A DNA stretch of 64,000 bases from Pseudomonadota bacterium (lineage in GTDB: Bacteria; Campylobacterota; Campylobacteria; Campylobacterales; Sulfurimonadaceae): positions 241,140 to 305,139 of the forward strand of contig JAZDQA010000013.1 of the NCBI GenBank assembly GCA_043797085.1, given 5' to 3'. Below, in pieces: positions 7,310 to 56,086 of the stretch (its first letter is position 1; every line of letters begins with the position of its first letter). The notes beneath the pieces were generated by a model that was not told the DNA's origin, searched no databases, and was given only the letters and a program-made list of their open reading frames with translations. The translations under genes were made by a program, and so were the position numbers.

Positions 7310-7353
7310 ACATATAACCCTTTAAAAAAGCATATTGTACCGTAATGAGTAGA

Positions 7354-7372
7354 CTCTTCCGAAAAGGAAGAG
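7354..7372 (-). terminator. Hairpin after the adhesin gene, possible terminator/attenuator
   Basis: CTCTTCC-gaaaa-GGAAGAG, 7-bp stem, weak U tract. Confidence 0.4.
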
Positions 7373-7393
7373 CTGTTAAAAAGAGAGGAGTAT

Positions 7394-11886: not shown

Positions 11887-12836
11887 ACAGTTCTCCTAAA
11901 ATAAAATGGATAGATAAGGACAAAAATGCCCAAAAGAATGACAACAATCCAAAGTTCATGCGTCAAAGCGACTAAATTGGCTATCGACGATGCACCCCAG
12001 CCTACCCCTACCATAGTAATTCCAATCACTCGAACATCGCCCATCTGAGTCAACTCGCGGAACAATAAAACATTATAATATGAAATAACAATCGGATAAA
12101 TAATAGCGAGCAATACCGGCTGATGAGAGTAATAAGCAGCATAACTTAGGGCAAAAAGTCCCAATATTATCCCATTGCTTCGCATCAATGTTTTGCCATA
12201 ACGAAACGCCAAATAAACTCCCAAGAGATGCGATATAACAATCAGTGCCATATAGTGCCGCCAAACATCCATCTCATCTGAGCGGTTCAAGGTTTCAAAC
12301 AAAGCGGAATCTGCAAAAATCCACACCATCATCACTGCTATCACTTTAAAATTGAGGGGAGTATGGTGGCGATGTGAGCGCATAGGCAGGCTTGAAAAAT
12401 ACAGTGCTGCCATTGAAATACTGGGTAACATAATTGCTATGATTCCTCGCTGTTGGAACGGATACGTATAGAGGGCTGTTCCTACCGCGTACGAGAGAGC
12501 AAGTCCCAGTGCCAGATTTTTTCGGCTTTGTTCACGAAAGACATAGAGCATCAAAGGGGTTGTGTAGCCCACGATAAAGCCCAATACCAATAAAAGTCCC
12601 AGTGAATAATCGGGATAAAACCACGAAAGAATAATCTGTGCGATAAACATAAAAAAAAGCTCTTGCTTAATCCCATGATGCTTCCAATACGCACTCACAA
12701 TACTCCCAATCACCCCTCCAATAGGAAGCGTATAAAGATCGTGTATGTGAGAGTCAAACGCTCCCACGACTCCCGTTTGTGCAATCAGGAGATAATAAAG
12801 CAACTGAGAACTAAGAACAATGACGAGCATATTCAT
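11883..12836 (-). CDS. Polytopic membrane protein of unknown function
   Basis: About 10-11 hydrophobic segments in two halves; overlaps both neighbours. Confidence 0.75.
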   Translation of the reverse strand: MNMLVIVLSSQLLYYLLIAQTGVVGAFDSHIHDLYTLPIGGVIGSIVSAYWKHHGIKQELFFMFIAQIILSWFYPDYSLGLLLVLGFIVGYTTPLMLYVFREQSRKNLALGLALSYAVGTALYTYPFQQRGIIAIMLPSISMAALYFSSLPMRSHRHHTPLNFKVIAVMMVWIFADSALFETLNRSDEMDVWRHYMALIVISHLLGVYLAFRYGKTLMRSNGIILGLFALSYAAYYSHQPVLLAIIYPIVISYYNVLLFRELTQMGDVRVIGITMVGVGWGASSIANLVALTHELWIVVILLGIFVLIYPFYFRRTV

Positions 12837-14404
12837 TTACGCAAGCCTAAGAAATAAATCATGGCATACAGACCATCATAAAAAGCAATCAACAATGCCA
12901 ACTCATCCAAAATTCCTGCCATATACAAAGCGGCGAACGTCGAAGAGATGAGGAATCGGATGATGGCACTGAGGCTTGCGAGACGATCTTCATCCCCATG
13001 CAATCCAAACCAGTGAATCATCCCCGTCCCCATGACAAAGGCAAACACGATATACTCATACGTTGCGGTAAACGTAAACCCAAGCAAGCCAAAAAGCCAG
13101 CCCCCTGCGATCACAAGAATCAGCCCGCCAAAAGCGTCCCCTAAAAATCCCATCAAATGATAAATTTTTAACGGAGTATTGATAGGGATAATCAATCGGT
13201 CATAGAGTATTTTTGCGACTAAAACAACAATCATGACCCCGAAAATAGCCCTCATCATCAAAAATGGCTCAATACTTCCGCCAATCAATCCCGCTTCTAT
13301 AAGACCGGCGAGAGAAAGAGAGAGTGCCATTAAACTAATTAACAGAGCCCAGAGTGTCGCATACAATCGTTTAAACAGCGCCGGTAAAAGATGGTAGGCG
13401 ATAGAGAGAGCCATAAAAGCAACCCCTAATCCCATGGCGATATGGGCATGTCCCACGACCAAATCGTTGCGATGTATCAGCGCTCGAAGTTCAGGGATAA
13501 AAAGGATATTTCCCTCAATATCGACAAAGATAAACGCCGCAATCGATAGGATGAGATAGGGATTTGTTTTAAACTGTACCCCAGCATCCCGAAGCCAAAT
13601 CCACAGCAGCGGCAGATACAACAACGTCAAATACTGAAAAAACCACTCTTCGTTGTAACTCAATGGGTGGAAAAAATTACGTATTATCAGTGAAGTGACA
13701 TATCCCGCCAACGGAATCATCCACAGCCAGTGAAAGCGTGGTGCGAACGCTTTAGGTGCGGAAAGCTTGATGAGCAAATAATAAATCGGGAGAAGAGCGA
13801 AACTCATCCCCAGCGTATTGTCCCCATGAGGGCCTACGAGAGTTTTTTCCACCTGACCGTATTGGGGATTCATCAAAACTACCAAAGCGATGGGGGCGGC
13901 GATAACCGCTAAAAGCGATACATTCACCCACAGCGGACGTTTTTCATAACGCTTCAGTGCGTCCAAAAGTGCCAAAAGATAAAACAGCCCGCTAAAGGCG
14001 AGGAGAAAGTTCAACTGATAGGGAAAATCGTAAAATGGTAATCCCCGAATATTTCCAAAAAGAAGCGCCATACTCATAAAGAGTAAAAATACGTTCCAAA
14101 CGACGAAGTATCGCGCCAAATGTTTCAAACCGTTTTGACTCAAAACACCCTCTTTTTCAAACAGCGCAAAAGGCAACAATGAGAGAATAAGCGGGAAAAA
14201 ACCATACAACATTTGCGAAATATGGAGAGACCTGGCACGCTCAGGGGAAAGCAGGGTCATGGAAGCATCTAATCCTAACATCTCAACTGCGTACACTAAT
14301 CCCGTAAAGAGTCCTAAAAAGAGCCAAAACAAAAGAAGAGGGAGATTATCGTTTAAGAATTTTGACAATTTTTCCATCCTCCATTTCAATGATTGTATCG
14401 GCAT
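12833..14404 (-). CDS. Divergent heme-copper oxidase subunit I-like membrane protein (CcoN/NorB-like); start may be 14377
   Basis: RARSLH, GDNTLG...YY, H.NDLVVGHAH motifs in the order of CcoN RLRPLH, GHNAVG...YY, HYTDWTIGHVH. Confidence 0.72.
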   Translation of the reverse strand: MPIQSLKWRMEKLSKFLNDNLPLLLFWLFLGLFTGLVYAVEMLGLDASMTLLSPERARSLHISQMLYGFFPLILSLLPFALFEKEGVLSQNGLKHLARYFVVWNVFLLFMSMALLFGNIRGLPFYDFPYQLNFLLAFSGLFYLLALLDALKRYEKRPLWVNVSLLAVIAAPIALVVLMNPQYGQVEKTLVGPHGDNTLGMSFALLPIYYLLIKLSAPKAFAPRFHWLWMIPLAGYVTSLIIRNFFHPLSYNEEWFFQYLTLLYLPLLWIWLRDAGVQFKTNPYLILSIAAFIFVDIEGNILFIPELRALIHRNDLVVGHAHIAMGLGVAFMALSIAYHLLPALFKRLYATLWALLISLMALSLSLAGLIEAGLIGGSIEPFLMMRAIFGVMIVVLVAKILYDRLIIPINTPLKIYHLMGFLGDAFGGLILVIAGGWLFGLLGFTFTATYEYIVFAFVMGTGMIHWFGLHGDEDRLASLSAIIRFLISSTFAALYMAGILDELALLIAFYDGLYAMIYFLGLRK

Positions 14405-20167: not shown

Positions 20168-20767
20168 ATGCAACCATTCACCCCAACCGATGATCAGATT
20201 CGCACCCAGTTTGTCACCTCTTTGATGAACTATTTCAAAATAGATGAAGATGTGTTCTTACGCTCTCATATCGATGAGCTCATCCGTCCCATCAGCACAG
20301 CTCGTTACAGTGAGTTTTTGCGTCGTCTTTCCAGTCGTGATTTTACGTATAAAACGGGAATTGAAAAAATTTCTCTTATCGCTCACGAACTGTATGAAGA
20401 ACAGCTCTCTCCTTTGGAGATGCAAGCGCATGAGCGAACGCAAAAGCTGTATGCACTCATGTATGATTTGCGTCGAAACATCACGGAAATCAAAAACAGC
20501 GAAAGCAGTGCTGCCCAACGATTCGAAAATGTCCGTTTTACCTCGATCAAACATGCCGACTCCACCGAACCTCTTTTGGATTCACTGGACATTGACGTTA
20601 TTCGAATTCTCACAAAACGATGGATTTACGATTATGTTGCGAATGATCGCGGACTATTTGAAGCACGAGTGGAACACGAATACCTCAACTTGTTAATCGA
20701 ACAAGAACGATTGGCAAGACAGCCTCTCATCGCGAAAACCACCAAAAAAGCGCTAAAATGCTCATGA
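20168..20767 (+). CDS. Hypothetical helical protein, coupled to the replication-like gene
   Basis: 199 aa ORF overlapping the next gene by 10 bp. Confidence 0.7.
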   Translation: MQPFTPTDDQIRTQFVTSLMNYFKIDEDVFLRSHIDELIRPISTARYSEFLRRLSSRDFTYKTGIEKISLIAHELYEEQLSPLEMQAHERTQKLYALMYDLRRNITEIKNSESSAAQRFENVRFTSIKHADSTEPLLDSLDIDVIRILTKRWIYDYVANDRGLFEARVEHEYLNLLIEQERLARQPLIAKTTKKALKCS

Positions 20768-21648
20768 TAGCCATCCCCTCTTCTCTCATCGACCGTAATG
20801 ATTTGAGCCTCTTAGAACGCGCGCTTCTTCCTCTGATTATTCGCCACGGTCTCATTTGGGGAGATAAACCAAAAGCTCTCTCTGCCTCATTTTTAGCCGA
20901 ACTTTTACGCCACAGTCCTCGTGAAGTGGTCGAAGCACTGGATGCATTGGTAACAAAAAAAATACTCAAAACAACCCGTGAAAAAACGGCGAACGGCGTG
21001 ATGATCCTCTACGTCCTTGAGCCCATTGCTGCTTCCATTGCAAGCCCTTCTTTGGCACTTACCGCATCGCAGTACACCGACAGCAACTATTATCTCAACC
21101 TCTCCAACGATTTTTTCGAAGAACTCCACGCCTATGCGCTCGAAGTATGTGATCGAGAGGGTCTGCGACGGGAGCTGTTTGATGATTTCAATCTCTATCA
21201 ACGCTCGCAAAACCGCCGATCGTTTGACTGGTTTGCCGAGTTTGAGCGGTGGTGTCGCCGTGAAGTAAGCTCCAATGCACCCGCAATCGCCAATCCAAAG
21301 CAAGTCGAAGAGACAAAGCCAAGCACTCAAGAATTCGAGATGGCGCAGTATTTTATCCGTCGTCTCTCCTCCATCGACCCGCAGTTCCAAGAGCCGTTTG
21401 ATGTGATGAGCTGGGCTGCACAGATTAAACTTTTGAGTGACACAGGAGGGTATTCCCTGCTTGAAATCAAGGCAGGAATTGATTGGCTCTTTAGCAGTAA
21501 AGGAGACTGGTTCCGTCCCAATGTCCCTGATGCCTATCATTTGAGAAAACACTTCAAACGGCTCATCTCTAACACCCGAAGTTTCCGAGACGGAGAGACA
21601 AAACTCCCCGATGGCATCAATATTTTCGATATTATCGGGCGGGAATAA
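20758..21648 (+). CDS. Phage replication-initiator-like protein (wHTH, DnaT-like middle, lambda-O-like C-terminus)
   Basis: LAELL..S...V..AL..L..K HTH; F..Y......DW.A.F..W.RR; WA..IKLL....YS..EI...IDW.....WF..NV.....LRKHF..L. Confidence 0.6.
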   Translation: MLMIAIPSSLIDRNDLSLLERALLPLIIRHGLIWGDKPKALSASFLAELLRHSPREVVEALDALVTKKILKTTREKTANGVMILYVLEPIAASIASPSLALTASQYTDSNYYLNLSNDFFEELHAYALEVCDREGLRRELFDDFNLYQRSQNRRSFDWFAEFERWCRREVSSNAPAIANPKQVEETKPSTQEFEMAQYFIRRLSSIDPQFQEPFDVMSWAAQIKLLSDTGGYSLLEIKAGIDWLFSSKGDWFRPNVPDAYHLRKHFKRLISNTRSFRDGETKLPDGINIFDIIGRE

Positions 21649-27005: not shown

Positions 27006-29084
27006 TTACCATTTCCCCTCAATCGATAAAACCACCTGTGGTTTTGTATGCTCTTTATCCACCTGAGTCTGCGTAATCGCTCCTGCTGCATCGTACAGAC
27101 GTGAAGTTGTCTCTACCGTAGAAGCCGTGATATTTTTCACGTTAAACTGTAATTTAAACGTTTTATTGAGCCGTTTATTGGCATAGAAATCGAGTGTGCC
27201 GTACCCTTTTTGCGATTGGGATATGAAATACTCCTGCGGATCATCGTATCCACCGACGTAGCGATAAGCGGCTCCGTAGGTGATTTCAGAGCCTTTTAGC
27301 GTGTGATCAAAACCGAGGTTACAGGTAAAATTCGGTGTTTGTAAAAGCTCTCTTTTGACTCCGGTTAGAGTGTTCGTAATCGATGAGTCTTGCAGCGTTG
27401 CATTGGCAAAAATTCCGAACCCTGTGATGTACTCTTTGAGTGATTTTTTAACCTCTAATTCAAGACCCCACAACGATCCCTCTCCAGCATTTTCAGGGGT
27501 TTGTTCATAGCGTCCCGATACGGAGTTAAAACGGATCGCATTTTCGATTTTATCATTGATGGTTCGATAAAACCCGCCGATACTCGCTAAGCCTTTATCC
27601 TCAAAAAAATGTTCGTACCGAAGCTCATAACTCAACGCTTTCTCTTCGTTCAAATTCGGATTTCCGATCACATCGGGGCGATGGATGCTGTTTTCATCGA
27701 GGGTGCTGTTGGTACTCGCCGATAGTTGGCTGAGTCTTGGGAGACGGACGGTTTTAGCAACACTTGCACGGATATTGTCTTTTGGTGTCACCTGAAACAG
27801 TGCGTGCAGAGAGGGCGCGAAGTAACCCAGATTCGACGTTGCACCATAGTCTCTCTCTAATGTTTCATAACGAAGACCCGGGGTAATGACGATCCCCTCA
27901 TTCAGTGTATATTCGTCTTGGATATAGAGGGCGAGCTTGTCCTCTTTCATCTGAATTTTATCGTTCACAGAAGTGACATCTACCCCGTTTAACACCCGTG
28001 TCGTTTCATCGATTTGATCGCTTCTTTTGAGTTCAAATCCGGCTTTGATAAAGTGATCCTCTCGAAGTGCGGAATAATCTCCTTGAAGTCCGTAAAACCG
28101 ACTCAATACATAATCGTGATTTTTTCGGTTGTTAGCAGATGGGGTCGATAATGACTCCAAATCGGCACTCTCTTCAAACGAATGGATTTTTGCCTTCCAT
28201 TCAAAAATATCATCACCAAATCGGTGCTCCGCCCCCAATGCCGACCAAAGCATCGTATTGGTAGCATCGTCGTAACTTTGGTAACGACTTGTCGGAGTGG
28301 CTGAGCCTTCGGTTAGCGTCGTTGAATTAATCCTATCAGTATCATGATTAAACGTCACAGAGCCGTCATAGAGTATTTTAAGGCGTGAAGAGGGGGTGAA
28401 GTTCAGTTTTCCACGCAGTCCTACGGAGCGATTTTTGCTTTTATCGTCACGCTTCTCATTGGTATTTAATGCTATTTTATCGGTAAAAATATCCGTCCGA
28501 TCTACTTTACGGTTTTCAGACGCGGTAAGGTTTGCCAAATACGAAATTTTATCGATTTTCCCTTCTCGTTGAACATACGCGGTTTCACTCAAATCCTCAC
28601 CGTAGGCACCAACGGTTACTTTTGCTAACATTCGCCCCTCTGCCTTTGGTTTTTTGAGAACGACGTTGACGATCCCCCCCATCGATTCGGCAGTGTACTC
28701 TGCCGAACCGTTGGTCATCACCTCGATGCGCTCGATCATGTCGGGTGAAATCTGCTCTAACGGACTAGCACGCTTACTCGTACCCGTCGAAGTCGCCTCA
28801 CCGTCGATCATTACCACCGTGTATCCCTTACCCGGTGCACTAGCGGGTCCTTTGCCATTTGGAATCGTTACCCCAGGGGTGCGTCGGAGAATCTCTAACG
28901 CATTCGAATCCCCATACTGAGTCAATTCCTCTGCTTTGATAATCCGTTTGGCGATGGAATTATCCCGTCGCTCATCGATAGCGGAATACTCTTCGGCGAC
29001 TTGGATTTTTTCTAACGTCACAATCTCTTGCGCACACACACTGCTAATCATAGCGGTAGATGCAAGTATAATTCGATAATTCAC
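27006..29084 (-). CDS. TonB-dependent outer membrane receptor
   Basis: Probable GTG start at 29084 after AGGA; plug motifs LRRTPGV, IERIEV, GGIVNVVLK; terminal Trp. Confidence 0.93.
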   Translation of the reverse strand: MNYRIILASTAMISSVCAQEIVTLEKIQVAEEYSAIDERRDNSIAKRIIKAEELTQYGDSNALEILRRTPGVTIPNGKGPASAPGKGYTVVMIDGEATSTGTSKRASPLEQISPDMIERIEVMTNGSAEYTAESMGGIVNVVLKKPKAEGRMLAKVTVGAYGEDLSETAYVQREGKIDKISYLANLTASENRKVDRTDIFTDKIALNTNEKRDDKSKNRSVGLRGKLNFTPSSRLKILYDGSVTFNHDTDRINSTTLTEGSATPTSRYQSYDDATNTMLWSALGAEHRFGDDIFEWKAKIHSFEESADLESLSTPSANNRKNHDYVLSRFYGLQGDYSALREDHFIKAGFELKRSDQIDETTRVLNGVDVTSVNDKIQMKEDKLALYIQDEYTLNEGIVITPGLRYETLERDYGATSNLGYFAPSLHALFQVTPKDNIRASVAKTVRLPRLSQLSASTNSTLDENSIHRPDVIGNPNLNEEKALSYELRYEHFFEDKGLASIGGFYRTINDKIENAIRFNSVSGRYEQTPENAGEGSLWGLELEVKKSLKEYITGFGIFANATLQDSSITNTLTGVKRELLQTPNFTCNLGFDHTLKGSEITYGAAYRYVGGYDDPQEYFISQSQKGYGTLDFYANKRLNKTFKLQFNVKNITASTVETTSRLYDAAGAITQTQVDKEHTKPQVVLSIEGKW

Positions 29085-29097
29085 AATAGGTTCCTGC

Positions 29098-29487
29098 TTA
29101 TTTTTGTTTGTCGGTGACAATATAGAGCTGTTCATGCCCTAGACGTTTAAGAACGTCCATCACTCCAACAAAATTTTGAAATGCTGCATCTTTATCGCTG
29201 TAAAGTACAACTGTCATCTCTTTACCACCAGCCACTACACGCTGTTCAAACTCTGCCAAAGTGATCGGAGTTTTTGCCTCATCCAACATTAGAATCCCGT
29301 CTTTTCGGATAGTCAGTTTAAGTTCTGAGGGTTTATGCTCTGCAGCTGTCCCTTTGGCATCAGGCAACTCAACAGGGATTAATCCGGTACGAATAAATGT
29401 CGCCGTCGTCAATACCATGACCAAAAGAACCAGCATAATGTCGATAAAAGGAATGACGTTAATGGAATCAACCCGTTTCATTTTCAT
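29098..29487 (-). CDS. exbD: ExbD
   Basis: INVIPFIDIMLVLL, SDKD, VMDVLK. Confidence 0.95.
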   Translation of the reverse strand: MKMKRVDSINVIPFIDIMLVLLVMVLTTATFIRTGLIPVELPDAKGTAAEHKPSELKLTIRKDGILMLDEAKTPITLAEFEQRVVAGGKEMTVVLYSDKDAAFQNFVGVMDVLKRLGHEQLYIVTDKQK

Positions 29488-29490
29488 AGG

Positions 29491-29943
29491 TTACCCTCGA
29501 TTTTTATGGGCGCTAATGTCCCATTGTGTCAAAAGTCGTTCCATTTTTCGAAGCAAAATATTGTAAAAAATGATAGCAGGGATAGCAACCACCAGCCCCA
29601 TCGCCGTAGCTTTGAGCGCCAATGCCAATCCGGTCATAATCTTCTTCGGATCAACCGCACCAACATCACCGAGGCTGTAAAACGTAATCATAATCCCCAA
29701 TACCGTCCCAAGCAGTCCCACATAAGGAGCATTGGAACCGATAGTCGCAATCGTACTGACGTTATTACCTAAATCAAGCTCCAACTCCTCTTTGGTCTCG
29801 TAATCATGGATACGTACCGACCCATACGCCATCATTCTCTCGATAAAAAGCGAGAGTGAGGCAACACTCATTAACACCAAAATCCCGATAATTCCATAAT
29901 CAATCGCCGCGTGTGCGAATTCCAACATGTTGCTATTTTCCAT
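29491..29943 (-). CDS. exbB: ExbB
   Basis: NAPYVGLLGTVLGIM, ALKATAMGLVVAIPA. Confidence 0.95.
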   Translation of the reverse strand: MENSNMLEFAHAAIDYGIIGILVLMSVASLSLFIERMMAYGSVRIHDYETKEELELDLGNNVSTIATIGSNAPYVGLLGTVLGIMITFYSLGDVGAVDPKKIMTGLALALKATAMGLVVAIPAIIFYNILLRKMERLLTQWDISAHKNRG

Positions 29944-31154: not shown

Positions 31155-31961
31155 TCAACTCTCTGATTCGCTCAAAAACGCATCACGAGCCAAAACGGCT
31201 GCACCGTAGGATGTTGTAATTTGCGGAAATTCAGGGACAAAAATTTTGTGTCCTAGTTCATTTTCTATCGCGCTTACAAGCCCACCATTTAATGCCGGTC
31301 CTCCGTCAAAGTAGACATTTTCTTTGACCCCGACTCGCTTCACGAGTTTCACGATCCGTTTGGCAATCGAATAATGAACTCCCGAAACGATGTCTTCCAC
31401 GCTGTGACCATTACCTAAAAGTCCTATGATTTCAGACTCAGCAAAAACCGCACACGTACTGCTGATCGAAAGCGGTGTCCCTTTGGATTGAAAATGAAAA
31501 TCGCCAAGTTCATCCACTCCGATTTCCAAATTCATCGCGACCACATCGAGAAATTTTCCCGTTCCTGCCGCGCATCGGTCATTCATTGCAAAATTGACTA
31601 CATTTCCCTCAGCATCCAGTGAAATCGCCTTGCTGTCTTGTCCGCCGATGTTAATGATGGTTTTTATCTCTCCATACTCTTTGGCTGCTTGTTGCGCACC
31701 GATGGCATTGGCGGTAATTTCACTGATGTTTTCATCCGCCTCTTTAAAAAGTTTACGCCCATATCCTGTAGCTACCGTATAGACCACCTCACTCTCATCA
31801 ATACCTAACTCTTTTAACAGCTCCGCCAACGCCTCTTGTGCGTATTTGTAAAACATACTCCCACTCGCGCTGATTTTATGCCCGACTAAATTTTTATTTT
31901 CATCTGCAACACTAATCTTGATTGCGGTAGAGCCGATGTCGATACCTACAAAATATTTCAT
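31155..31961 (-). CDS. CoA-substrate-specific enzyme activase (HgdC/BadF-type ASKHA ATPase; DCCP-reductase-like)
   Basis: GIDIGST, ATGYGR, SEITA, IGGQDSK, MNDRCAAGTG, STCAVFAESE. Confidence 0.95.
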   Translation of the reverse strand: MKYFVGIDIGSTAIKISVADENKNLVGHKISASGSMFYKYAQEALAELLKELGIDESEVVYTVATGYGRKLFKEADENISEITANAIGAQQAAKEYGEIKTIINIGGQDSKAISLDAEGNVVNFAMNDRCAAGTGKFLDVVAMNLEIGVDELGDFHFQSKGTPLSISSTCAVFAESEIIGLLGNGHSVEDIVSGVHYSIAKRIVKLVKRVGVKENVYFDGGPALNGGLVSAIENELGHKIFVPEFPQITTSYGAAVLARDAFLSESES

Positions 31962-33229
31962 TTTTTCATTCTCTTTCGATTTTTTAATGACTCGATAAAT
32001 GCTTCAACCCGTGTGGTAAGCTGTCCTTGTTGCGATGGGCTGTACTCGCTCTCGATGTAGAGGATCGGGATACCCTCTCGCTCCATCGCGGCCAAAACAC
32101 TGCGCTGTTCCATCTCATACACTTGACACCCTGCAAATGCTTGGTAGATCACCCCATCACCGTTATAACTGCGAACCAATTGGATGATTCTGCGGATTCG
32201 GTCGTCGTTTTGGGTAAATATCGGGCAGGTACACGCTTTGAGATATTTATCCGAAACCGAATCGATCATGTCGTAGAGATTCCACTCATCCACTGCCACC
32301 ATATCGTTAAACATACGGTTCGAGCTGCACGTCTCATCGGCGACGATGATGGCATCGCTCTCTTCGATAATGAGGGGGATTTTATAGTTGGGGAAAATCG
32401 GTGGGGAACCTGTATAAACGATTCTCGGGCTTGCTTTTCCTGCCACATTGATACCTTCAATTACCCGTTGTTCCAACTCTGCGACCAGTTTCTCAACAGC
32501 ACTTATCCATTCGTCTATCTTGTCAAAAAAGAATGCGTTGGTAACCAAAAACATATCGACACCCAAGATAGGGACAATTTTATTTTTTCGAAAATCGGTA
32601 AGTTTATGATAAAGCGATTGTGCATATCCGACCTTTTTAATCGCACTCTCCAGATTGGTTCGTGTCAACTTTTTACCTTGAAACTTCGAGAGTTCAACGG
32701 CAAAATGTTTGACACTTTCGCGCCAATAATGGCGGCTCTCTTCACTCTCTTTGGTTCGTGGAAATCCAACATCGATAATCGTATGTCCCAAATTCTCGAT
32801 GATCGCACCCGCTTTGGTTTTTTGATCGCACGTCGTCGGTGAAAAGGTAATATCTGGCTTATCGGTAAAATTATCCGATGCGAACAATCCCACCGTCGCT
32901 TTAACCAGCGGACACGATTTGGAAGGCATCAAATCACTTCCGATTTCATCGTCGGTATAAAATCCGTTGCACAGTCGAATCGGCACACCATCAAGGGCAT
33001 AAATGATTTCAGAAGGGATTTGGATACACATCGTCCCGATTTTTGTTTTCCCTTCATGCAGAGGTTCGTGATGACAATAGACTTTTTCAAACAAATCGTA
33101 AAAATAATCCATACTCTTGATTGGGGATTTAAAATCCTCTTTCAACGCATTAATAACATGGATCGCCTCCATCGCTTTATGGCGATTTTGTCTCTCTTTT
33201 GCTGTTTCTATTGTATGTTCAGTGTTCAT
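31958..33229 (-). CDS. 2-hydroxyacyl-CoA dehydratase-family protein with double-cubane cluster protein (DCCP)-like Cys pattern
   Basis: Start MNTEH at 33229 after AAAGGA (423 aa); GTMC, SCPLVK, TTCD.K, DETC, CTC, AGC, GQLTTRVEAF. Confidence 0.85.
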   Translation of the reverse strand: MNTEHTIETAKERQNRHKAMEAIHVINALKEDFKSPIKSMDYFYDLFEKVYCHHEPLHEGKTKIGTMCIQIPSEIIYALDGVPIRLCNGFYTDDEIGSDLMPSKSCPLVKATVGLFASDNFTDKPDITFSPTTCDQKTKAGAIIENLGHTIIDVGFPRTKESEESRHYWRESVKHFAVELSKFQGKKLTRTNLESAIKKVGYAQSLYHKLTDFRKNKIVPILGVDMFLVTNAFFFDKIDEWISAVEKLVAELEQRVIEGINVAGKASPRIVYTGSPPIFPNYKIPLIIEESDAIIVADETCSSNRMFNDMVAVDEWNLYDMIDSVSDKYLKACTCPIFTQNDDRIRRIIQLVRSYNGDGVIYQAFAGCQVYEMEQRSVLAAMEREGIPILYIESEYSPSQQGQLTTRVEAFIESLKNRKRMKK

Positions 33230-34232
33230 TATTATCCTTTCTCTGATCCATCGCCATACGCACAAGAAAGCCTTCTTTGGTCGATTCGAAAATAGTGGCT
33301 CCCATAAAATTAGCCTCCAAACATCCCTCTTCAGGACACGCTGCGATACATTTGAGACAAAGGGTACAATCTTCAGTAACTAAATTTTTGCTCGTCACAT
33401 CATCGGCGATTTCGAGAATGTCCATATCACACGCATGATAGCAATCCCCGCATTTGGTACATTTAGCTCCATCTTTATAAAGCTTCAATAAGGCGGGTTT
33501 GGAAAAAATATATTGCAATGCCGCCATCGGGCAAAAGTAGCAAAAAAACCGTTTTTTGACAAACGACCCCACTAAAAACAGTCCTGTTATAATCATCCCT
33601 AGTGCCGTCATAACCATATCTGTCTTCGACGAAAAATCAATGTAGAACTGATTAAAATGACCTGTAAATGCCGGAATCATCATCCGTCCGGGACAAATAT
33701 CGCAAAATGGCATTGAGAGCCCATTGGGAAGTTTCGGAAGACCAAATACCGAGTTGGCAATCATCACGGGGAGCAAGAGCAAAAGAATTAAAAGAATGTA
33801 TTTGATACTTTTGATTTTTCCACGATTCGCCCATGAGTATTCACTGTAACGGATTCTGGATTTTTCACGCAACATCGTGAGCCAGTCTTGCATCGTCCCA
33901 AGAGGGCACACAAATCCACACCACCCTTTGTTCAACACCCAAAACCACACCATAAACATCCCAAGGGATATGAGAAAAGCGTATCCGGCAAATCCCATAA
34001 ACATATCAATCGGATGTTTCAAATCATGTTGAAGTTCCCCCACATAACACTTTCCGCCCGTCCCTTCTCCGTTAAATACACACGCAAAAGTAGGAAGCTT
34101 ATCGCCCAAATCGAGTCCGACATATCCGCCGTACACCATTAGAACAAACGCAACGATCTGAAACCAAAACCGAAACCGCACGAGGTTCATATTATTGACT
34201 GCACGACGGAGACTAAATTTATTCTTCGTCAA
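33219..34232 (-). CDS. NapH/MauN-type membrane polyferredoxin
   Basis: TM helices; WCGFVCP, FCDICP, FCYFCP, CTKCGDCYHAC, CTLCLKCIAACP. Confidence 0.9.
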   Translation of the reverse strand: MTKNKFSLRRAVNNMNLVRFRFWFQIVAFVLMVYGGYVGLDLGDKLPTFACVFNGEGTGGKCYVGELQHDLKHPIDMFMGFAGYAFLISLGMFMVWFWVLNKGWCGFVCPLGTMQDWLTMLREKSRIRYSEYSWANRGKIKSIKYILLILLLLLPVMIANSVFGLPKLPNGLSMPFCDICPGRMMIPAFTGHFNQFYIDFSSKTDMVMTALGMIITGLFLVGSFVKKRFFCYFCPMAALQYIFSKPALLKLYKDGAKCTKCGDCYHACDMDILEIADDVTSKNLVTEDCTLCLKCIAACPEEGCLEANFMGATIFESTKEGFLVRMAMDQRKDNNEH

Positions 34233-35172
34233 AATAGATCTCCTTGGGCGTTTTGCGCTTGCGTCGTCGGTTGTAATAAAGCCCCAGCGAAAAGACCAAC
34301 ATCACCCCAATAGCGGTTGCGAAGCCTAATACTTTTGATTCGTATTCCAGCGGAGATGCACCAAAGGAGAGAGGCAAAGTCATTACATAATGAACAGCAT
34401 GATATTTTTCTGTGCCGTAGATTCCCGATTCATTCACATCGTATGACGCTTCAACAATCATCTTTTCGGAACGCTTTTTTTCTTTTTCGGTTGCCGCATA
34501 GGTACTGCGCGGAATCTCAAATGAGGTCATCCCCTCTTCATCGGGTTGAATCGTGGCATTCCAGCCGCTCTCCATGCTCACTTTTAACGGAACATCTTTT
34601 TGTACTACCCCTTTATAATAAATCGTGAAAGGGGCAATATCACCCGAATACAAACAACAGTTAATATGGTGTTTTCGAATCGGTTTCTCCATAATCAACT
34701 CAAACGGAAGCTGTGCGAGAGGTTCATGATCGTAATGGGAATCGTTCGTTTTCCCACGGATCTCTTTAAGTAGCGTTTGAGAGATATTCCCCTCTTTGTT
34801 ATGAATTCTTACCGATGAAAGATTTACATGAAGGACACCATCTTGAACGGATTTTTGTTCAAAATAAAGACGATAGCCCCCTTTGTGTACCGGAGTAAAA
34901 GAAATTTTCCCTCCCGACACATCCAGCTTTGTTACCGCATGATCCATATCGCGAACATAGACAACCGTATTATTTAAATCACGGACTTTTTTATTCTCAT
35001 CGAATGTCCCTTTTTTGATGAAAAATTCTTTGGCTTCTACTGTTTTATCCCCTGCCTTGCAACACGATTTTTTCTTGGATTCATCCATCCATACAAAATC
35101 ATCCCCAAAAAGAGGCAATGACCCATACGTGATCGCAATGACCAAAAATGTTTTTGATAGGATCGATTTCAT
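34219..35172 (-). CDS. Periplasmic protein with C-terminal membrane anchor (DUF4198-like)
   Basis: Signal peptide, PFELI, YYKG, ...DEEG..SF; terminal TM plus basic tail; two CC motifs. Confidence 0.65.
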   Translation of the reverse strand: MKSILSKTFLVIAITYGSLPLFGDDFVWMDESKKKSCCKAGDKTVEAKEFFIKKGTFDENKKVRDLNNTVVYVRDMDHAVTKLDVSGGKISFTPVHKGGYRLYFEQKSVQDGVLHVNLSSVRIHNKEGNISQTLLKEIRGKTNDSHYDHEPLAQLPFELIMEKPIRKHHINCCLYSGDIAPFTIYYKGVVQKDVPLKVSMESGWNATIQPDEEGMTSFEIPRSTYAATEKEKKRSEKMIVEASYDVNESGIYGTEKYHAVHYVMTLPLSFGASPLEYESKVLGFATAIGVMLVFSLGLYYNRRRKRKTPKEIYFDEE

Positions 35173-35174
35173 AA

Positions 35175-37451
35175 TTAAAAATTTGCCGATAAATTAATCG
35201 TTACACCACGCCCTGGCATACGATAGTATTCATAATACTCTTTATCCAATAGGTTATCTATCATCACGCTGGCTTTTATATTTTTGTTGATTTTATAATC
35301 TGCTTTCAAGTCAACAACTGTATATTTACTATAACCTGTCCATATACCCTTAACTATATCCGAATTGTCATTGCTGTTAAATACTTCTCCTACATAACGA
35401 CCTGAAAGTGCTCCTGAATAATCTCCATATTGAGCTAAGAATGCCAAAGTTGCCGTATCTTTAGGGACATTGGTTACCCGCTTTCCTTCCATCCCCGTAT
35501 TGGTATTATCTTTGGTAATTTTAGAATCCGTATACGAGTAGCTCCCACGCACTTCCAACCAATTTACTAAAGGATATTCTCCTGAGAGTTCAATCCCTTT
35601 TGCCAACGCTTCTCCAGTATTTTCCTGTTTAGCAATATAATCAACCACTTTGTTGATGATTGGATCGGTATATTGAGGTACTTTGGTAATTTTTTGATAA
35701 ATCAAATCGGTTGTCTTGGTTACAAAACACGTAGCCATTACCTTTCCGCCATCCACAAAGTGATATTCAACTCCAAGATCAAACGCTTTTGCTTTCTCAG
35801 GCTTCAAATCCGGATTTGAATAAATCATCTTTCCATTGGGTGCTGCGTTACCTGAAAAAGTAGGATTAGCAAAAAGATAATAGTTTGTCGGCGCACGGAA
35901 TCCTGTCCCTACCGAACTTTTAATCGACGTTCGATCATTGACCATATAAACAGCGGCGATTTTTGGGCTAAATGATGATTCCTTGCGATCTGAATACACA
36001 GTCGTCCCCGGAACAGAGCCTGTGGTCACAACACCTACCCCACCCGCTTTCCACATATCATATCGCCCACCTACGTACAACAATAGATCATCATTAACCG
36101 CAATTTGGTCTTGAAGAAAAATTGAGTTCGTAATACTTCTAGCATCAATCCGATCCAGCTCCGCCGTTTTGGTATCCATATTCGTCCAATCCGAAACCGC
36201 GTATTTTTTCTGATGAAGACGCCCAACTTCCGTCGCAACACCCGTAATCAATAAATGGCTATCACCAATAGGAGTAGTCAGCTGTGCTGAAGCATTGGTT
36301 GTACTATTAGGTGAATTACTAAGCGTCCCAGCACCAGAGGTCAATGTTGCCGTTGCACCAATAGCAGAGCTCCAATACTCACGATCAATTTTCCCAAAAT
36401 TGAGACTCAACTTACTGTCTCCCAATTTTCCATCATATCCAGCAAAATAGCGCAATGCAGTATTACCCATCGGAACAGAACCGGCAAAATCTTGTTCTTT
36501 AATCGTAGTCGCTTTGCCGTTTAGATTTAGGCTTGTTGCCGTTGTCCCTATTGCGATTGGATTCCCACTTGTATCAGTCAAATAACTATTGTATCCACGA
36601 TTCAGACTCTTTGCATCGGAATAAGCGAAACCTGCATTCACGGTTGAAGTTGGAGAGAGATCATAATAGAGTTTCGCATGAATATTTTTCTCCATAGAGG
36701 CATTAGTTCCCTTATCCCCGACAATATAAGTAGTTGCTCCCGCCGTTGTGGTGGTTTGTGTCGCACCATTAACAACAACAGCACTACCAGCAGGTGTCCC
36801 AGTAGGTGTTTTGGTTACATACTCGGCGATATATCCTTCACGATAGTTTTCAGAGACTCCAAATACAACCCCAAGACCATTTTTGAATTTATTGCGGTAC
36901 AACGCACTTGCATGATCTCCCGATGCATCACCAAAACCTTTGCCAACATTAAACGACATTTCCTCTTTCGTCGGTGCTTTGGTCGTAATACTAATAACTC
37001 CACCTACTGCGTTACTACCGTATAATGAGGAACCAACCCCCGGCACTACCTCAATACGATCCACATCATCCATTGTAACCATAGACCAGTTAACTTGACC
37101 CGAATAGGCATCGACCATATTCATCCCATCTACCAAGACTGCCATCTTGGTCAATGTTCCCCCTGCACCTCGCATAACAAGATATCCTGTTGCACCAGGT
37201 CTAGAATTACCCAATGCTCCTCCTCGCAGATAAAGCCCAGGGACTTTAGCATTTAACGCATCCCCTATACGCGGTGTGTTCATTTTTTCCATATCTTCAG
37301 CCGTTACTACTGAAACATTCACTGGAGCTTCCAATGTTGATTGCTCAATTTTTGATGCACTTATAGACACATCCCCCAAATTAACCGTTTCAGTAGCATA
37401 GGCGCTACTGCAAAATATAACTGCCGCCATTGATAGCTTAACTACTTGCAT
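35175..37451 (-). CDS. TonB-dependent outer membrane receptor
   Basis: ATG 37451 after AAGGA; VPGL, DRIEVV.G..SSLYG..A.GGVI.I.TK, GFRAP, NPDLKPE, NLLDK.Y, terminal Phe. Confidence 0.95.
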   Translation of the reverse strand: MQVVKLSMAAVIFCSSAYATETVNLGDVSISASKIEQSTLEAPVNVSVVTAEDMEKMNTPRIGDALNAKVPGLYLRGGALGNSRPGATGYLVMRGAGGTLTKMAVLVDGMNMVDAYSGQVNWSMVTMDDVDRIEVVPGVGSSLYGSNAVGGVISITTKAPTKEEMSFNVGKGFGDASGDHASALYRNKFKNGLGVVFGVSENYREGYIAEYVTKTPTGTPAGSAVVVNGATQTTTTAGATTYIVGDKGTNASMEKNIHAKLYYDLSPTSTVNAGFAYSDAKSLNRGYNSYLTDTSGNPIAIGTTATSLNLNGKATTIKEQDFAGSVPMGNTALRYFAGYDGKLGDSKLSLNFGKIDREYWSSAIGATATLTSGAGTLSNSPNSTTNASAQLTTPIGDSHLLITGVATEVGRLHQKKYAVSDWTNMDTKTAELDRIDARSITNSIFLQDQIAVNDDLLLYVGGRYDMWKAGGVGVVTTGSVPGTTVYSDRKESSFSPKIAAVYMVNDRTSIKSSVGTGFRAPTNYYLFANPTFSGNAAPNGKMIYSNPDLKPEKAKAFDLGVEYHFVDGGKVMATCFVTKTTDLIYQKITKVPQYTDPIINKVVDYIAKQENTGEALAKGIELSGEYPLVNWLEVRGSYSYTDSKITKDNTNTGMEGKRVTNVPKDTATLAFLAQYGDYSGALSGRYVGEVFNSNDNSDIVKGIWTGYSKYTVVDLKADYKINKNIKASVMIDNLLDKEYYEYYRMPGRGVTINLSANF

Positions 37452-37493
37452 TAATATCCTTGTATTAAATAAATCCAAGAATTATTTCAAAGT

Positions 37494-37534
37494 AGTGTTA
37501 CATTTGTGTTAAGTCTTAACAGTAATGTAACACT
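37494..37534. promoter_or_regulatory. 41-bp palindrome in a divergent promoter, probable operator
   Basis: AGTGTTACATT-tg-TGTTAAG-t-CTTAACA-gt-AATGTAACACT; 18 of 20 positions pair. Confidence 0.7.
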
Positions 37535-37580: not shown

Positions 37581-38234
37581 ATGATGCAATCGTTACCTCT
37601 TTTTTCATTGTTTCTTATTGCATTATCCTATGGTGCAACGGCATGTATGCTCTCGTGTATGCCTATCCTTTCCCCGATTCTTTTAGCCAACAGCGCCACA
37701 CGCCAAGAAAGCCTTCGAGTCCTTATCCCCATCACCGCAGGTCGCATTAGCGGTTATACACTCTTAGCAGTTATTGCCTTCACAGGAGCAGTCTTTGTCC
37801 AATCACTGCTCAAAGATAAAACCTTAATGGGCTATGTTTTAGGAGCTGTAACCCTGCTGCTTGCACTCAAACAACTGCTCGCCATTCGGACAAAACAAAC
37901 CTGTTGCGCTCAAACCACACAACCCAGCAAAAGCACCAATACCACCCTTTTTGCGACGGGACTTCTTCTATCGATGTCCATTTGCGCACCCGTTGCTACC
38001 ATGATGACACTCAGTGCAACCGCTCCCTCATTGGGCTGGGCAGCTTTATACGGATTGTTTTTCGGGCTGGGAGCTACGCTGTTGTGGTTTTTCTTTTTTT
38101 CCGTTGTTCTAACAACCGCACTCAAAGAAAGCCTTAATCACCTATCACGCTATCGACGCACCATTGAAATAATGGCTCCGATTTTATTGGCGTGTGTCGG
38201 AATTTTAATTTTTAATGGATGGATACGACTATGA
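37581..38234 (+). CDS. DsbD_2/CcdA/UreH-like six-TM protein
   Basis: CMLSCMP, GRISGY, ICAP, FFGLG motifs. Confidence 0.8.
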   Translation: MMQSLPLFSLFLIALSYGATACMLSCMPILSPILLANSATRQESLRVLIPITAGRISGYTLLAVIAFTGAVFVQSLLKDKTLMGYVLGAVTLLLALKQLLAIRTKQTCCAQTTQPSKSTNTTLFATGLLLSMSICAPVATMMTLSATAPSLGWAALYGLFFGLGATLLWFFFFSVVLTTALKESLNHLSRYRRTIEIMAPILLACVGILIFNGWIRL

Positions 38235-38935
38235 CTATAACCATGACCCCTCAGACCAAAGCTTTTGGACTCTCCTTCGCGTTGCACACCTTAATGGCGC
38301 TTCTTGCGATGTTAGCACTTACGCGGATGTACCATCCTGTTAATCTGGATGTTATCCCAATGAAACATGTCACTCTTGTGACACTATCTCATGTGACTCC
38401 AATGCCCATACAACCCACAATCACACCGCCAACCACAACAATCACACAACCCGCTCCCACACAGCCCATCACAAAACCAATCGTGCCTACCAAAACCCAA
38501 CCTATTGTGACTCAAACAATACCTGTACCCTCCATTCCTGCTGTCGTACATCAAGCTATACCTACAGAAACAAAACCTGTTGTAGTCGCGGAAACAAAAG
38601 CTATACCTGTTCAAGCCGTCATTCCCTCAAAACCAAAAATCGATACAACCTCTGAAAAAAAATTGTTCTATGCCTCATTACGTACAAAAATCCAACAAAA
38701 CCTTCGCTATCCGTTTGCCGCAAGACGTGTAGGGAAAGAGGGAGAAGTTGGTGTTCGCTTCACACTTTCTGATGATGGTTCAATCCGTAATATCTCAGTT
38801 CAACGCGGTGAAGAAATTTTTCATAACGCCGCCAAAGCAGCCGTTGCATCAACCGCCGGTATCGATATTCCTAAAAATCTTATCGACTCTCTGCCAGTAG
38901 AGATGGATTTAACCCTCGAATTTAAGCTTAACTAA
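38219..38935 (+). CDS. tonB: TonB energy transducer
   Basis: SFALH (SxxxH) TM, Pro/Thr-rich linker, YPFAARR.GKEGEV.V.F. Confidence 0.92.
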   Translation: MDTTMTITMTPQTKAFGLSFALHTLMALLAMLALTRMYHPVNLDVIPMKHVTLVTLSHVTPMPIQPTITPPTTTITQPAPTQPITKPIVPTKTQPIVTQTIPVPSIPAVVHQAIPTETKPVVVAETKAIPVQAVIPSKPKIDTTSEKKLFYASLRTKIQQNLRYPFAARRVGKEGEVGVRFTLSDDGSIRNISVQRGEEIFHNAAKAAVASTAGIDIPKNLIDSLPVEMDLTLEFKLN

Positions 38936-50451: not shown

Positions 50452-50850
50452 TTATAAACAACCCTTAAAGAACGATTTCTTCGGTGGAGGCGGAGCTTTA
50501 AATTCAGTAGCAGCAATGATGTTTGTAGCCGTATCTAAAATACCTACGATAATAACACCATTTTTATTCATCCCCTCACCAAGCTCAGAAACTTTAAGTT
50601 TTGATGTATCGATTTGATACACTTTACCCGTATTGTGTTGAAACAACGCCAATTTTGGATTAGTAGTTGCGCCTGGTTCAATTTTTTTGAAACAATCATC
50701 TGAACCACAGCTATAATTTTCTAAATAACAATCCGCAAATGCTCCCTGAGCAGCACATGCCGGAGTCGTTAAAAGACCTTCGAATTCTTGCCCTTCATTT
50801 GCAAATGCACTAACAAAAAATGCCGCGCAGATCAGTGCAAATTTTTTCAT
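50452..50850 (-). CDS. Small secreted Cys-containing protein in the molybdoenzyme operon
   Basis: Signal peptide, five Cys in mature part, OB-like C-terminal half; overlaps gamma subunit stop. Confidence 0.75.
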   Translation of the reverse strand: MKKFALICAAFFVSAFANEGQEFEGLLTTPACAAQGAFADCYLENYSCGSDDCFKKIEPGATTNPKLALFQHNTGKVYQIDTSKLKVSELGEGMNKNGVIIVGILDTATNIIAATEFKAPPPPKKSFFKGCL

Positions 50851-52058
50851 TATTCTACCTCCGCTTTAAGAGATTTGAGATACGTTACGATATCTTCAAC
50901 TGTTTCTTTGTCTAGGAAACTGTAATCGGTCATCGTAGAAACGCGTTTCCCTTTTTCAATATTGTACCAAGGAGTATTGGCATGCGCATTACGGTTATAA
51001 CCTGGTACGACAACCGCAGACGGTTTTAAGATTGACTCACGCAGATAGGCTACTGAAGAGTAACCCCCAACATATTTCAATGACGGGGCCAAAAATGAAA
51101 CAGGATCAACCCTCTCTATTTGGTGACATCCGTTACATCCGTTTGCGGCAGATGCTTCTTTACCTTTTGCCGCATTACCTTTTGGATCGGTTGTCAGCTC
51201 AGCGAGCATTTCTGCATTCGATTTTTGCCCCTCAAGATTAATGGCAATCCACGCACTCAGGTTTTTAATTCCGTTACGACCCATTTTTGAACCGTCCCAT
51301 ACCGCGATCGAAACCGGTACGGTTCCGTTCAAATTCACATATTCATCTTTGAGTGAGCGACTAAGCGTCCCTGTCCAACCGTTCGATGCATACGTCATAG
51401 CTGCGTTAGATTTAACGGAACCGTCTTTAATTTCAGTCAAAGAACGATATCCCTCACCTACAAAGACACGCTCATAATCAGTATTGGCAAGTGATGCTGC
51501 TTTCGCGTCAAAATCGGCTAATTCTTTTTGGAATACCCCTGTTTGTTGACGATTGATTTGCATCCCTACATCATTATTACCATTAGGCTCATACACTTTT
51601 TCCATTGCTTTTTGGAGGTGTACAACTACCGGTCTACCGGTCGAACCCATACCGATGTATGGAAGCACTTGAGGTACTTTCGTTATCCCTGCAAATTGCA
51701 CGGCAAAACCATCGCTATACTCCGTAGTTGTTGCCGCGGATTGCACATCTTTCGTCCCGTCAGCCCATTTGACCAACAAGGCGATATTTTTGCCGTCATA
51801 CAGCGCAGCAACCTGTGCTTTTTTAGCTTTCGGATTTAAATTTTCAGGAAGCACATTTGCTTTTTTATCGTTCATATAGATTGCAGTTTGCGGATAAAGA
51901 GTTACGGTTTCAAATTTTGCTTTCGACCATACTGCTGAATTGGCTTTAATCGCATCCAATTTTTCAGAAACCTTAACTGCGTTAATCGCAGGATTAGCCG
52001 CTAGAGCCGCAGAGGCGGCAACACCCAGTGAAAGAAGGGTTGTAAGAAGCTTTTTCAT
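50850..52058 (-). CDS. Type II DMSO-reductase-family gamma subunit (EbdC/SerC-like heme b domain) fused to cytochrome c
   Basis: W.D.T, DGFAVQF, PYIGMG, AVWDG...RNG.K; C-terminal CNGCH, YLRESI..P. Confidence 0.85.
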   Translation of the reverse strand: MKKLLTTLLSLGVAASAALAANPAINAVKVSEKLDAIKANSAVWSKAKFETVTLYPQTAIYMNDKKANVLPENLNPKAKKAQVAALYDGKNIALLVKWADGTKDVQSAATTTEYSDGFAVQFAGITKVPQVLPYIGMGSTGRPVVVHLQKAMEKVYEPNGNNDVGMQINRQQTGVFQKELADFDAKAASLANTDYERVFVGEGYRSLTEIKDGSVKSNAAMTYASNGWTGTLSRSLKDEYVNLNGTVPVSIAVWDGSKMGRNGIKNLSAWIAINLEGQKSNAEMLAELTTDPKGNAAKGKEASAANGCNGCHQIERVDPVSFLAPSLKYVGGYSSVAYLRESILKPSAVVVPGYNRNAHANTPWYNIEKGKRVSTMTDYSFLDKETVEDIVTYLKSLKAEVE

Positions 52059-53155
52059 TAGTGGTGTCCTCCGGCTTTTGTAAACTTACCGGCAATGTAG
52101 CGCGTATCTACAGGTGCCAATGGTGTACGTTTTTGCTCTTTTGCAACTTCTTGATAGTAATGATTATCCAAACGGAACATGTCGGCATGCTGATACGCGA
52201 TCAGAATGTCCATAAGCTCACTTACACCCGTCTCTTTACGTTTTTTCATTTCCGCTTTGAGCGTTTTAATCGCATGGTGCACTTCAGGTCCAAACAATTT
52301 TTCAAGCTCTCCAATCGGTAGACGTGTTGATCCTTCGATGATTTTCCCCTCAGCATCAAACTTAGCAGGAGATTCGGTCGGAGGAACATAATAGACATTT
52401 GGTTGTGTTCCGTAATCAGAACGCAAGCCGATTGCTACTTTGTATTTGTGCACCAATTTATAAACTTGAGACTCTTCATCATCCAAGAATCCTACGAAAC
52501 GGATACGTCCGACACATTGTTGCGCACATGCCGGTGGTAAGCCCTGCTCAATACGTGGGAAACAAAGAATACATTTCTCTGATTTAGAGATTTTTGGATT
52601 GAAATAGATTTTTTTATAAGGACAGCCTGCGATACAATAACGGTATCCTTGACAACGATCCAAATCCACCAATACTACACCGTCTTGATCACGCTTAAAG
52701 ATAGCATCACGAGGACACGCACTCAAACATCCCGGATTTGTACAGTGATTACAAATACGCGGAAGATAGAAGAAATAGTTGTCTTGCGGGAATACTCCAG
52801 CACCCTCATCTTCATCCCAGTTTGGTCCCCAAGTAGGAGATATATGCGGCTTAAAAGTACTGTGATCAGCACTTTCCGTCATAATAGACTCATAGTTATA
52901 ATCCCAAGGAACCCCATAATCAGCTTCTAGATTAGGAATAACTCCCGGTTGAAGATCGCCAGCAGCATCAAATCCGCCGCCAAGTTCCATCCAGTTTTTC
53001 GGATAACCCGTACCCGGATAGGTCTCAACGTTATTCCAATACATATATTCACGACCGTTACGGTTCGTCCACTGTGTTTTACATGCCACAGTACATGTTT
53101 GGCACCCGATACATTTGTTCAGGTCCATGACCATTGCTAATTGTCTTTTAGACAT
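52058..53155 (-). CDS. Type II DMSO-reductase-family Fe-S beta subunit (NarH/SerB-like)
   Basis: DLNKCIGCQTCTVACK, WNNVET.PG, GPNWDED, CNHCTNPGC..ACP, CQGYRYC..GCPYKK, CILCFPR. Confidence 0.95.
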   Translation of the reverse strand: MSKRQLAMVMDLNKCIGCQTCTVACKTQWTNRNGREYMYWNNVETYPGTGYPKNWMELGGGFDAAGDLQPGVIPNLEADYGVPWDYNYESIMTESADHSTFKPHISPTWGPNWDEDEGAGVFPQDNYFFYLPRICNHCTNPGCLSACPRDAIFKRDQDGVVLVDLDRCQGYRYCIAGCPYKKIYFNPKISKSEKCILCFPRIEQGLPPACAQQCVGRIRFVGFLDDEESQVYKLVHKYKVAIGLRSDYGTQPNVYYVPPTESPAKFDAEGKIIEGSTRLPIGELEKLFGPEVHHAIKTLKAEMKKRKETGVSELMDILIAYQHADMFRLDNHYYQEVAKEQKRTPLAPVDTRYIAGKFTKAGGHH

Positions 53156-53164
53156 CTAAACCCC

Positions 53165-56077: not shown

Positions 56078-56086
56078 ATTTGAGCC

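Follow-up and report, generated by a model that had tools for sequence, protein, structure and literature searches.

The question raised by this locus is what a protein of the 2-hydroxyacyl-CoA dehydratase (HAD) family does in the middle of a TonB-type uptake operon. The window, i.e., the whole 64,000-nt stretch of DNA that was analyzed, carries one such gene beside an activase gene, and the original prediction had read the pair as a double-cubane cluster protein (DCCP) and its reductase (DCCP-R), whose context may reveal the substrate. The two genes are:

31958..33229, minus strand: DCCP-type protein, 423 aa (ATG start, AGGA-type ribosome site)
31155..31961, minus strand: ATP-dependent activase, 268 aa, ASKHA fold (PF01869 and TIGR00241 over cut-off)

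The DCCP-type protein and its activase

The ORF translation places Cys residues at positions 52, 68, 87, 106, 134, 301, 333, 335, and 368; those listed originally (68, 106, 134, 301, 333/335, and 368) were all correct, and C87 and C52 had been overlooked. Alignment to the DCCP of Carboxydothermus hydrogenoformans (DCCP-Ch) predicts C68, C106, C134, C301, C335, and C368 as ligands of an [8Fe-9S] cluster, where C335 rather than C333 was taken as the ligand by our own count on the phmmer alignment. C87 is the seventh Cys of the motif and aligns with the non-ligand Cys94 of DCCP-Ch, while C333 and C52 are extra conserved residues beyond it. Spacings between the seven motif Cys (68, 87, 106, 134, 301, 335, and 368) are 18, 18, 27, 166, 33, and 32 residues, and the protein fits the published motif CX19CX18-19CX29CX166-170CX32-34CX32C, in which six Cys are given as ligands (PMC7317905), with a third spacing two residues short. 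Since eight Cys (68, 87, 106, 134, 301, 333, 335, and 368) are invariant in 81/81 rows from 80 genome loci and in 151/151 full-length rows from genome and metagenome loci (a count that omits rows of <380 aa and over-long metagenome ORFs), the set is not due to chance; C52 is present in 142 of the same 151 rows. In many distant DCCP-like proteins (P0124-P0273), Asp or some other residue occupies the position of the seventh Cys, with the six ligands kept.

When the protein was aligned and modeled against the DCCP structure, as had been proposed, six Cys rather than three fell on ligand positions. A phmmer search of the PDB gave DCCP (7YYL/6ENO) 223 bits (E ~1e-64), compared to 73 for BzdN, 50 for HadC, and 49 for MbdN, and Foldseek ranked DCCP first (TM 0.83, E 1e-23) with an AlphaFold model of pLDDT 75.6, weak around residues 273-314. 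Judged by its seven-Cys motif, fold, and phmmer ranking, the protein belongs to the DCCPs, and we class it as a divergent clade because its NF040772 score (324.6) is under the cut-off of 350. Three clade relatives score 347-378 on this model, giving 325-378 for the clade, whereas three selD-type Campylobacterota DCCPs score 454-476. In a FastTree analysis of 129 sequences, the operon-linked DCCPs grouped together with a support of 0.996, and the selD-type proteins and YjiM fell outside this clade; since the tree was midpoint-rooted and built without HadB/C or DCCP-Ch sequences, it speaks to clade separation only. Of the 221 genomes sampled from the order, 18 contain the clade (at least 57% identity), and the closest named relatives of the protein are from Sulfuricurvum MAGs (86-96% identity). 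Taken alone, identification as a DCCP is ordinary.

The model has N-terminal helices at 10-31 and 38-52, and the alignment spans 416-422 columns; as modeled, this two-helix extension is of the class I DCCP type, predicted to close the CoA channel. The activase gene overlaps the DCCP stop codon by 4 nt. Its product scores 228.7 on TIGR00241 (cut-off 125.4) and has the features of a HAD-type activase, i.e., an ASKHA ATP motif (GxDxGST) and two predicted [4Fe-4S] ligands, C130 and C170, kept in 138/138 aligned rows. The DCCP half of the proposed DCCP/DCCP-R naming was thus borne out, but the activase scores higher with HadI (212 bits) than with DCCP-R (140 bits).

The pair resembles DCCP/DCCP-R of C. 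hydrogenoformans (CHY_0487/0488; 6ENO, 7YYL, 7YZM) in fold (TM 0.83, 31% identity), seven-Cys motif, N-terminal extension, and adjacent ASKHA activase. It differs in its separate clade, its extra C333 and C52, the sequence of its activase, its occurrence in microaerophiles, and its location beside a membrane Fe-S partner within an operon for TonB uptake. With the NF040772 reductases (E. coli YjiM/YjiL and the selD-linked DCCPs of Campylobacterota) it shares its best NCBIfam match and the cluster motif, unlike them scoring around the cut-off, having a different neighborhood, and showing no SelD dependence.

The uptake operon and the predicted DCCP-Fer4 contact

The remaining genes of the operon and of its divergent neighbor are:

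35175..37478, minus strand: TonB-dependent receptor, first operon gene (true start probably the ATG at 37451)
34219..35172, minus strand: periplasmic membrane-anchored protein, 317 aa, DUF4198/Zcp fold, SCC and HHINCC segments
33219..34232, minus strand: NapH/CcoG-like membrane Fe-S protein (Fer4), 337 aa
29933..31123, minus strand: PepSY_TM protein, 396 aa, accessory (absent from most related loci)
29491..29943, minus strand: ExbB
29098..29487, minus strand: ExbD
27006..29135, minus strand: second TonB-dependent receptor, last operon gene
37581..38234, plus strand: DsbD_2 membrane protein, 217 aa, PF13386 (accompanies the operon)
38219..38935, plus strand: TonB

On the minus strand, the order is thus TonB receptor, 317-aa protein, Fer4, DCCP, activase, PepSY_TM, ExbB, ExbD, and second receptor, with junctions of -14 to +31 nt except for one -38 overlap, and DsbD_2 and TonB diverge on the plus strand. 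The operon is conserved in Campylobacterota and in Gallionellaceae-like bacteria. Its cultured carriers include Sulfurovum mangrovi ST1-3 (LN246_RS14995-15030) and Sulfurovum sp. CS9 (L025). Among the best 80 of 209 genome loci, the activase was found at 76, Fer4 at 74, and DsbD_2 at 57 (window row subtracted), and among the best 80 of 410 metagenome loci, whose named members are Gallionellaceae and Gammaproteobacteria, the activase at 71, Fer4 at 69, DsbD_2 at 63, and a homolog of the 317-aa protein at 62; in these counts, many loci end at contig ends. No ABC importer was found in the core operon across the 80 genome and 80 metagenome loci. PCuAC adjoins some of the proteobacterial loci. A Csp-like protein lies beside six metagenome loci; it has no Pfam match, was judged by eye, and is not counted as evidence. 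At L042, L043, L045, L046, L080, and L126, the receptor-DUF4198-Fer4 module is tandemly duplicated before one DCCP, as it also is at L053, which has two DCCPs; such tandem capture modules ahead of a DCCP suggest that several modules share one reductase.

The 317-aa protein has no Pfam match, but its fold resembles that of the Zcp/DUF4198 metal-capture proteins (PDB 9MHI and 9GCB; Z 16.1 with rmsd 3.2 over 198 aligned residues and Z 15.4 with rmsd 3.2 over 186, the next match being 7.5), from which it differs in being membrane-anchored, in its low identity (10-11%), and in its candidate metal ligands. At 41 genome loci, its homolog is fused behind a second Fer4 domain, and in 22 of the 41 fused proteins a NosL domain sits between the Fer4 and DUF4198-like parts; CxxCG is retained in only nine of these 22 inserts. 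Fer4 itself has two ferredoxin motifs (C258-C268 and C289-C299) in a ferredoxin domain spanning about residues 250-337, CxxxCP/CxxCP motifs, and a loop with invariant C51/C62. In DsbD_2, C22, C26, C109, and C135 are near-invariant. PDB searches returned no close solved relative for the operon receptor or for DsbD_2.

The predicted DCCP-Fer4 complex scored 0.72, compared to 0.00 for the best of three controls; the docking mark was reached by 116 of 157 solved pairs and 2 of 215 mismatched pairs, counts that hold roughly here, with our own alignments. Runs agreed in at least 88% of contacts, with a partner pLDDT of at least 79. Predicted contacts join DCCP residues 308-332 and 195-208 to Fer4 residues 256-267, 298-300, and 319-332, including cluster Cys, and leave free DCCP's C-terminal helix, which in the solved complex binds DCCP-R (PMC9351452). 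The model therefore supports binding of DCCP to Fer4, and it gives no direction of electron flow.

Elsewhere in the window, a DMSO-reductase-family operon (50850-57244, minus strand) encodes a rhodanese followed by molybdopterin oxidoreductase alpha (970 aa), Fe-S beta (365 aa), and EB_dh-type gamma (402 aa) subunits. A 523-aa protein (12833-14404, minus strand), downstream of ABC-type genes, may be an atypical heme-copper oxidase subunit I-like protein, from a weak COX1 match (32.4 bits, below cut-off). A 1271-aa protein with six bacterial Ig-like domains is followed by type I secretion-like genes (2776-11209, minus strand), and two ORFs (199 and 296 aa; 20168-21648, plus strand) lack a Pfam match, the second resembling a phage/plasmid replication protein by eye.

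A shared promoter box and its regulon

Two inverted copies of a direct-repeat box lie in the 102-nt gap ahead of the operon, compared to 0.12 copies expected in the window:

37496..37512, minus strand: box TTAACA-N4-TGTAACA facing the operon, then a -10-like hexamer
37516..37532, plus strand: second copy, facing the divergent DsbD_2-TonB genes

Among 178 regions ahead of receptor, exbB, and DsbD_2 genes, some of them internal genes, 79 contain the consensus, TTAACA-N5-(T/G)TAACA, at two or fewer mismatches. A -10 element, which was not searched for, follows 10 nt after the box, with its A in 76/77 and its T in 76/77. At 44 of 59 loci the box lies ahead of the operon receptor, vs. 2 of 1180 shuffles, for a pattern derived from those same loci; three of the misses are downstream copies. 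In geometry, the box resembles OmpR/PhoB activator sites.

In the window's own genome, the exact 13-base pattern occurs six times, twice in the window and four times elsewhere, i.e., ahead of an OprC-like receptor, reversed 46 nt before ccoN, ahead of a PMM-pyrC-regulator-kinase-exbBD operon, and once within a gene. Only two of the 12 TonB receptors have the box directly upstream, the operon receptor and the OprC-like one (C13:37082), and the latter carries the CxxxM and HxM of the OprC copper site (motif from PMC8610252). Since OprC-like receptors are near universal (35/38 genomes), having one is in itself uninformative, and it is the box in common that makes the connection. With a weight matrix, further sites emerged ahead of the genes for a 1050-aa membrane protein and for a response regulator. 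However, the matrix core alone gave 3-7 matches of >16 bits in shuffled genomes vs. 7 in the real one; therefore, trust was limited to the highest-scoring sites and to sites accompanied by the -10 element.

Box plus -10 element was found at 33 sites in 15 other genomes, which are kin rather than independent, compared to one control match. Nine of these sites head this operon, five precede OprC-like or CxxxM receptors, two NosL, one nosZ (where the site abuts the ribosome site), and two DsbD_2-ccoN; the rest precede regulator or exbBD genes (two), other receptors (three), PepSY_TM (one), a peroxidase (one), and unrelated genes (seven). Outside the operon, 10 of 24 sites thus precede copper-import or copper-client genes. 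Three of the 15 genomes had no box or only partial sets (G021, G014, and G127 were without a match). The box is also present in genomes lacking this DCCP clade, so the operon appears as an optional member of a wider regulon. We read this as a copper-limitation regulon, with oxygen as the alternative signal, since OprC/NosA is also induced by anoxia (PMC8610252).

The candidate regulator of the box, by sequence comparison, is the response regulator C7:20733, the best own-genome match for 11 of 15 regulators beside the operon or box and the second for two. The box-headed operon at G000:C7:18253-23751 (L098), which may supply the regulator of a regulon not yet described, encodes PMM, pyrC, a response regulator, a short kinase, exbB, and exbD; its 288-aa kinase has two membrane helices and almost no periplasmic domain. 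For comparison, HsrA is reported to bind TTTAAG repeats, and the CrdR core AACACC-ATTT-CCACAA has only an 11-bp ACA period in common with the box.

A search of 43 upstream regions from Proteobacteria turned up no equivalent box. In 43-52 such regions, regulator-consensus and de novo searches returned exbD coding sequence as top matches, and an FNR-like site occurred in three loci only. An Rfam scan of the window gave no match, hence no riboswitch, and a generic promoter and terminator scan was at chance level. RNA runs yielded five small-share matches, contigs only, two of them probably DNA. At G000:C14:112212-114607, a short His/Cys-rich CxxC ORF lies directly before a TonB receptor with a CSIC plug and by eye resembles a metal-sensing upstream ORF.

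What the operon may do

Considering that the operon shares its box with copper-import and copper-enzyme genes, its strong reducing power likely serves to free copper that is scarce and tightly bound. The reading that we favor, tentatively and with slightly more doubt than belief, is a copper-limitation module in which ATP-energized electrons, passed through a membrane protein, release chelated copper. An OmpR-type regulator would activate the box-headed operon when copper is short, the TonB receptor would import a copper-ligand complex, and the DUF4198-fold protein would hold it in the periplasm. The activase, by homology, would hydrolyze ATP and load electrons into the [8Fe-9S] cluster of DCCP, for which docking onto Fer4's ferredoxin domain is predicted; electrons would then go from DCCP to Fer4 and its Cys motifs, reducing or breaking the complex. 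The Cu(I) would then reach, perhaps via DsbD_2, cbb3 oxidase and also NosZ in bacteria that have it. The original expectation that the context may reveal the substrate was answered in part: it names no substrate, but it indicates a copper-type uptake regulon.

The predicted docking counts in favor of this module, and the order from activase to DCCP, Fer4, and metal complex is favored on the precedent of BzdN, whose [8Fe-9S] cluster serves as an electron store (PMC11971306); by this analogy, a small-molecule substrate does not follow from six cluster Cys. BzdN (PDB 8S02), with its cluster fed by an ATP module, plays the role proposed here for DCCP, but it is a heterodimer with BzdO, acts on a CoA ester, and is only 22% identical. 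Among copper systems, cruR-crtA-crpH (Bordetella pertussis), the cupric reductase CcoG, and OprC/NosA similarly pair a TonB receptor with a PepSY_TM protein or a membrane Fe-S reductase and serve heme-copper oxidases under copper shortage, and a PepSY_TM protein is reported for the copper-starvation operon crtA-crpH; these systems are without DCCP or activase, and our receptor and PepSY_TM protein are likened to CrtA and CrpH by type, not by orthology. We found no description of the operon or box in the literature searched, which covered few subscription papers.

The weak point of the copper model is why copper release should require such a low potential. Cu(II) can normally be reduced without an ATP-driven low potential, so the model requires an unusually inert complex or cleavage of the ligand. 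Against copper also speaks that the OprC-type CxxxM-HxM plug motif was not found in either operon receptor and that seven of the 33 box sites have no relation to copper. In solved DUF4198 proteins, the reported metal is Zn or Ni, be it the physiological one or that of the crystal, and the DUF4198 His site is not conserved in the 317-aa protein. A more specific version, which we consider rather unlikely, is a nitrogenase-like, ATP-driven electron pump that would act via the membrane ferredoxin to mobilize periplasmic copper from inert sulfide- or thiolate-type complexes, with a two-component regulon inducing the pump and damping ccoN and nosZ, thereby sparing copper. Such a pump would give a homodimeric DCCP its first physiological role, and this in oxygen-respiring bacteria.

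Two alternatives accept the DCCP and the operon but differ on its purpose. As the original prediction and the class I model imply, DCCP could be the catalytic end point, a cytoplasmic reductase of a small molecule or of a ligand brought in from outside, with Fer4 only as membrane anchor or electron input. The N-terminal extension is of class I type, a class whose channels are described as suiting a small cytoplasmic substrate; DCCP-Ch reduces acetylene, azide, and hydrazine in vitro (PMC9351452), and the extra conserved C52 and C333 could line an active site. However, the core operon offers no ABC importer to carry a substrate into the cytoplasm, and the predicted interface would set the C301-C335 loop against a Fer4 cluster, fitting a wire, which leaves this reading doubtful. 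Of similarly low probability, in our estimate, is that the same architecture handles another cargo, be it an iron chelate, heme, cobalt, a corrinoid, nickel, or zinc, or that the regulon answers to low oxygen. ATP-driven reduction would make sense for iron chelates of low potential, and members of PepSY_TM, a family of heme-dependent metallophore reductases, are mostly ferrisiderophore reductases. Relatives with the DUF4198 fold bind Zn, Ni, Co, and Cu, a CobN-type chelatase adjoins four of the best 80 (of 410) metagenome loci, and the anoxic induction of OprC would fit as well. Yet none of the 33 box sites was recognized before an iron, nickel, zinc, or B12 gene, although three other box-headed receptors have no assigned cargo; nearly half of the sites outside the operon precede copper genes, as counted above, and no close match to the Fur-box consensus was found ahead of the operon.

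The other two alternatives concern the family itself, and we regard both as very improbable. Databases annotate the protein as a subunit of a classical 2-hydroxyacyl-CoA dehydratase or benzoyl-CoA reductase, in keeping with its PF06050 match, the source names, and an activase closest to HadI. However, neither the homologous subunits nor the three-Cys [4Fe-4S] site of a two-subunit dehydratase or class I benzoyl-CoA reductase was found. PF06050 matched one protein only in the window's genome (95.9% complete), and no second subunit was detected; moreover, the protein has six ligand Cys, scores 223 bits with DCCP vs. 49-73 with dehydratase and reductase subunits, and possesses the N-terminal helices, which in DCCP obstruct the CoA channel. 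A role in selenium metabolism, like the one put forward for the canonical NF040772 DCCPs, would draw on the 955 of 970 DCCPs scoring >400 bits that lie in SelD genomes (bioRxiv 2022.07.06.499078) and on selU-selD in the window's own genome; the mlp cluster paper likewise mentions DCCP only as selenium-linked. We rejected the link because SelD occurs in 6 of 18 clade genomes vs. 9 of 20 controls, and the selD-adjacent Campylobacterota DCCPs, with their far higher NF040772 scores, group with YjiM in a separate clade. A second, canonical DCCP clade does exist in the order (L085-L090), mostly beside selD, selA/selB, and DsrE-, SirA-, and transglutaminase-like genes (by eye), and G193 holds both clades. 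An accessory system for NosZ was also rejected, since nosZ is present in 9 of 18 clade genomes vs. 9 of 20 controls and absent from the window's genome.

The clade represents a second, selenium-independent DCCP context with a putative signal, a putative electron partner, a promoter box, and cultured carriers, and with these named, the role of DCCP becomes testable by copper limitation. Copper is poorly available in sulfidic water. If the copper reading is true, it would bear on how sulfur oxidizers obtain copper for their cbb3 oxidase and N2O reductase in such water.
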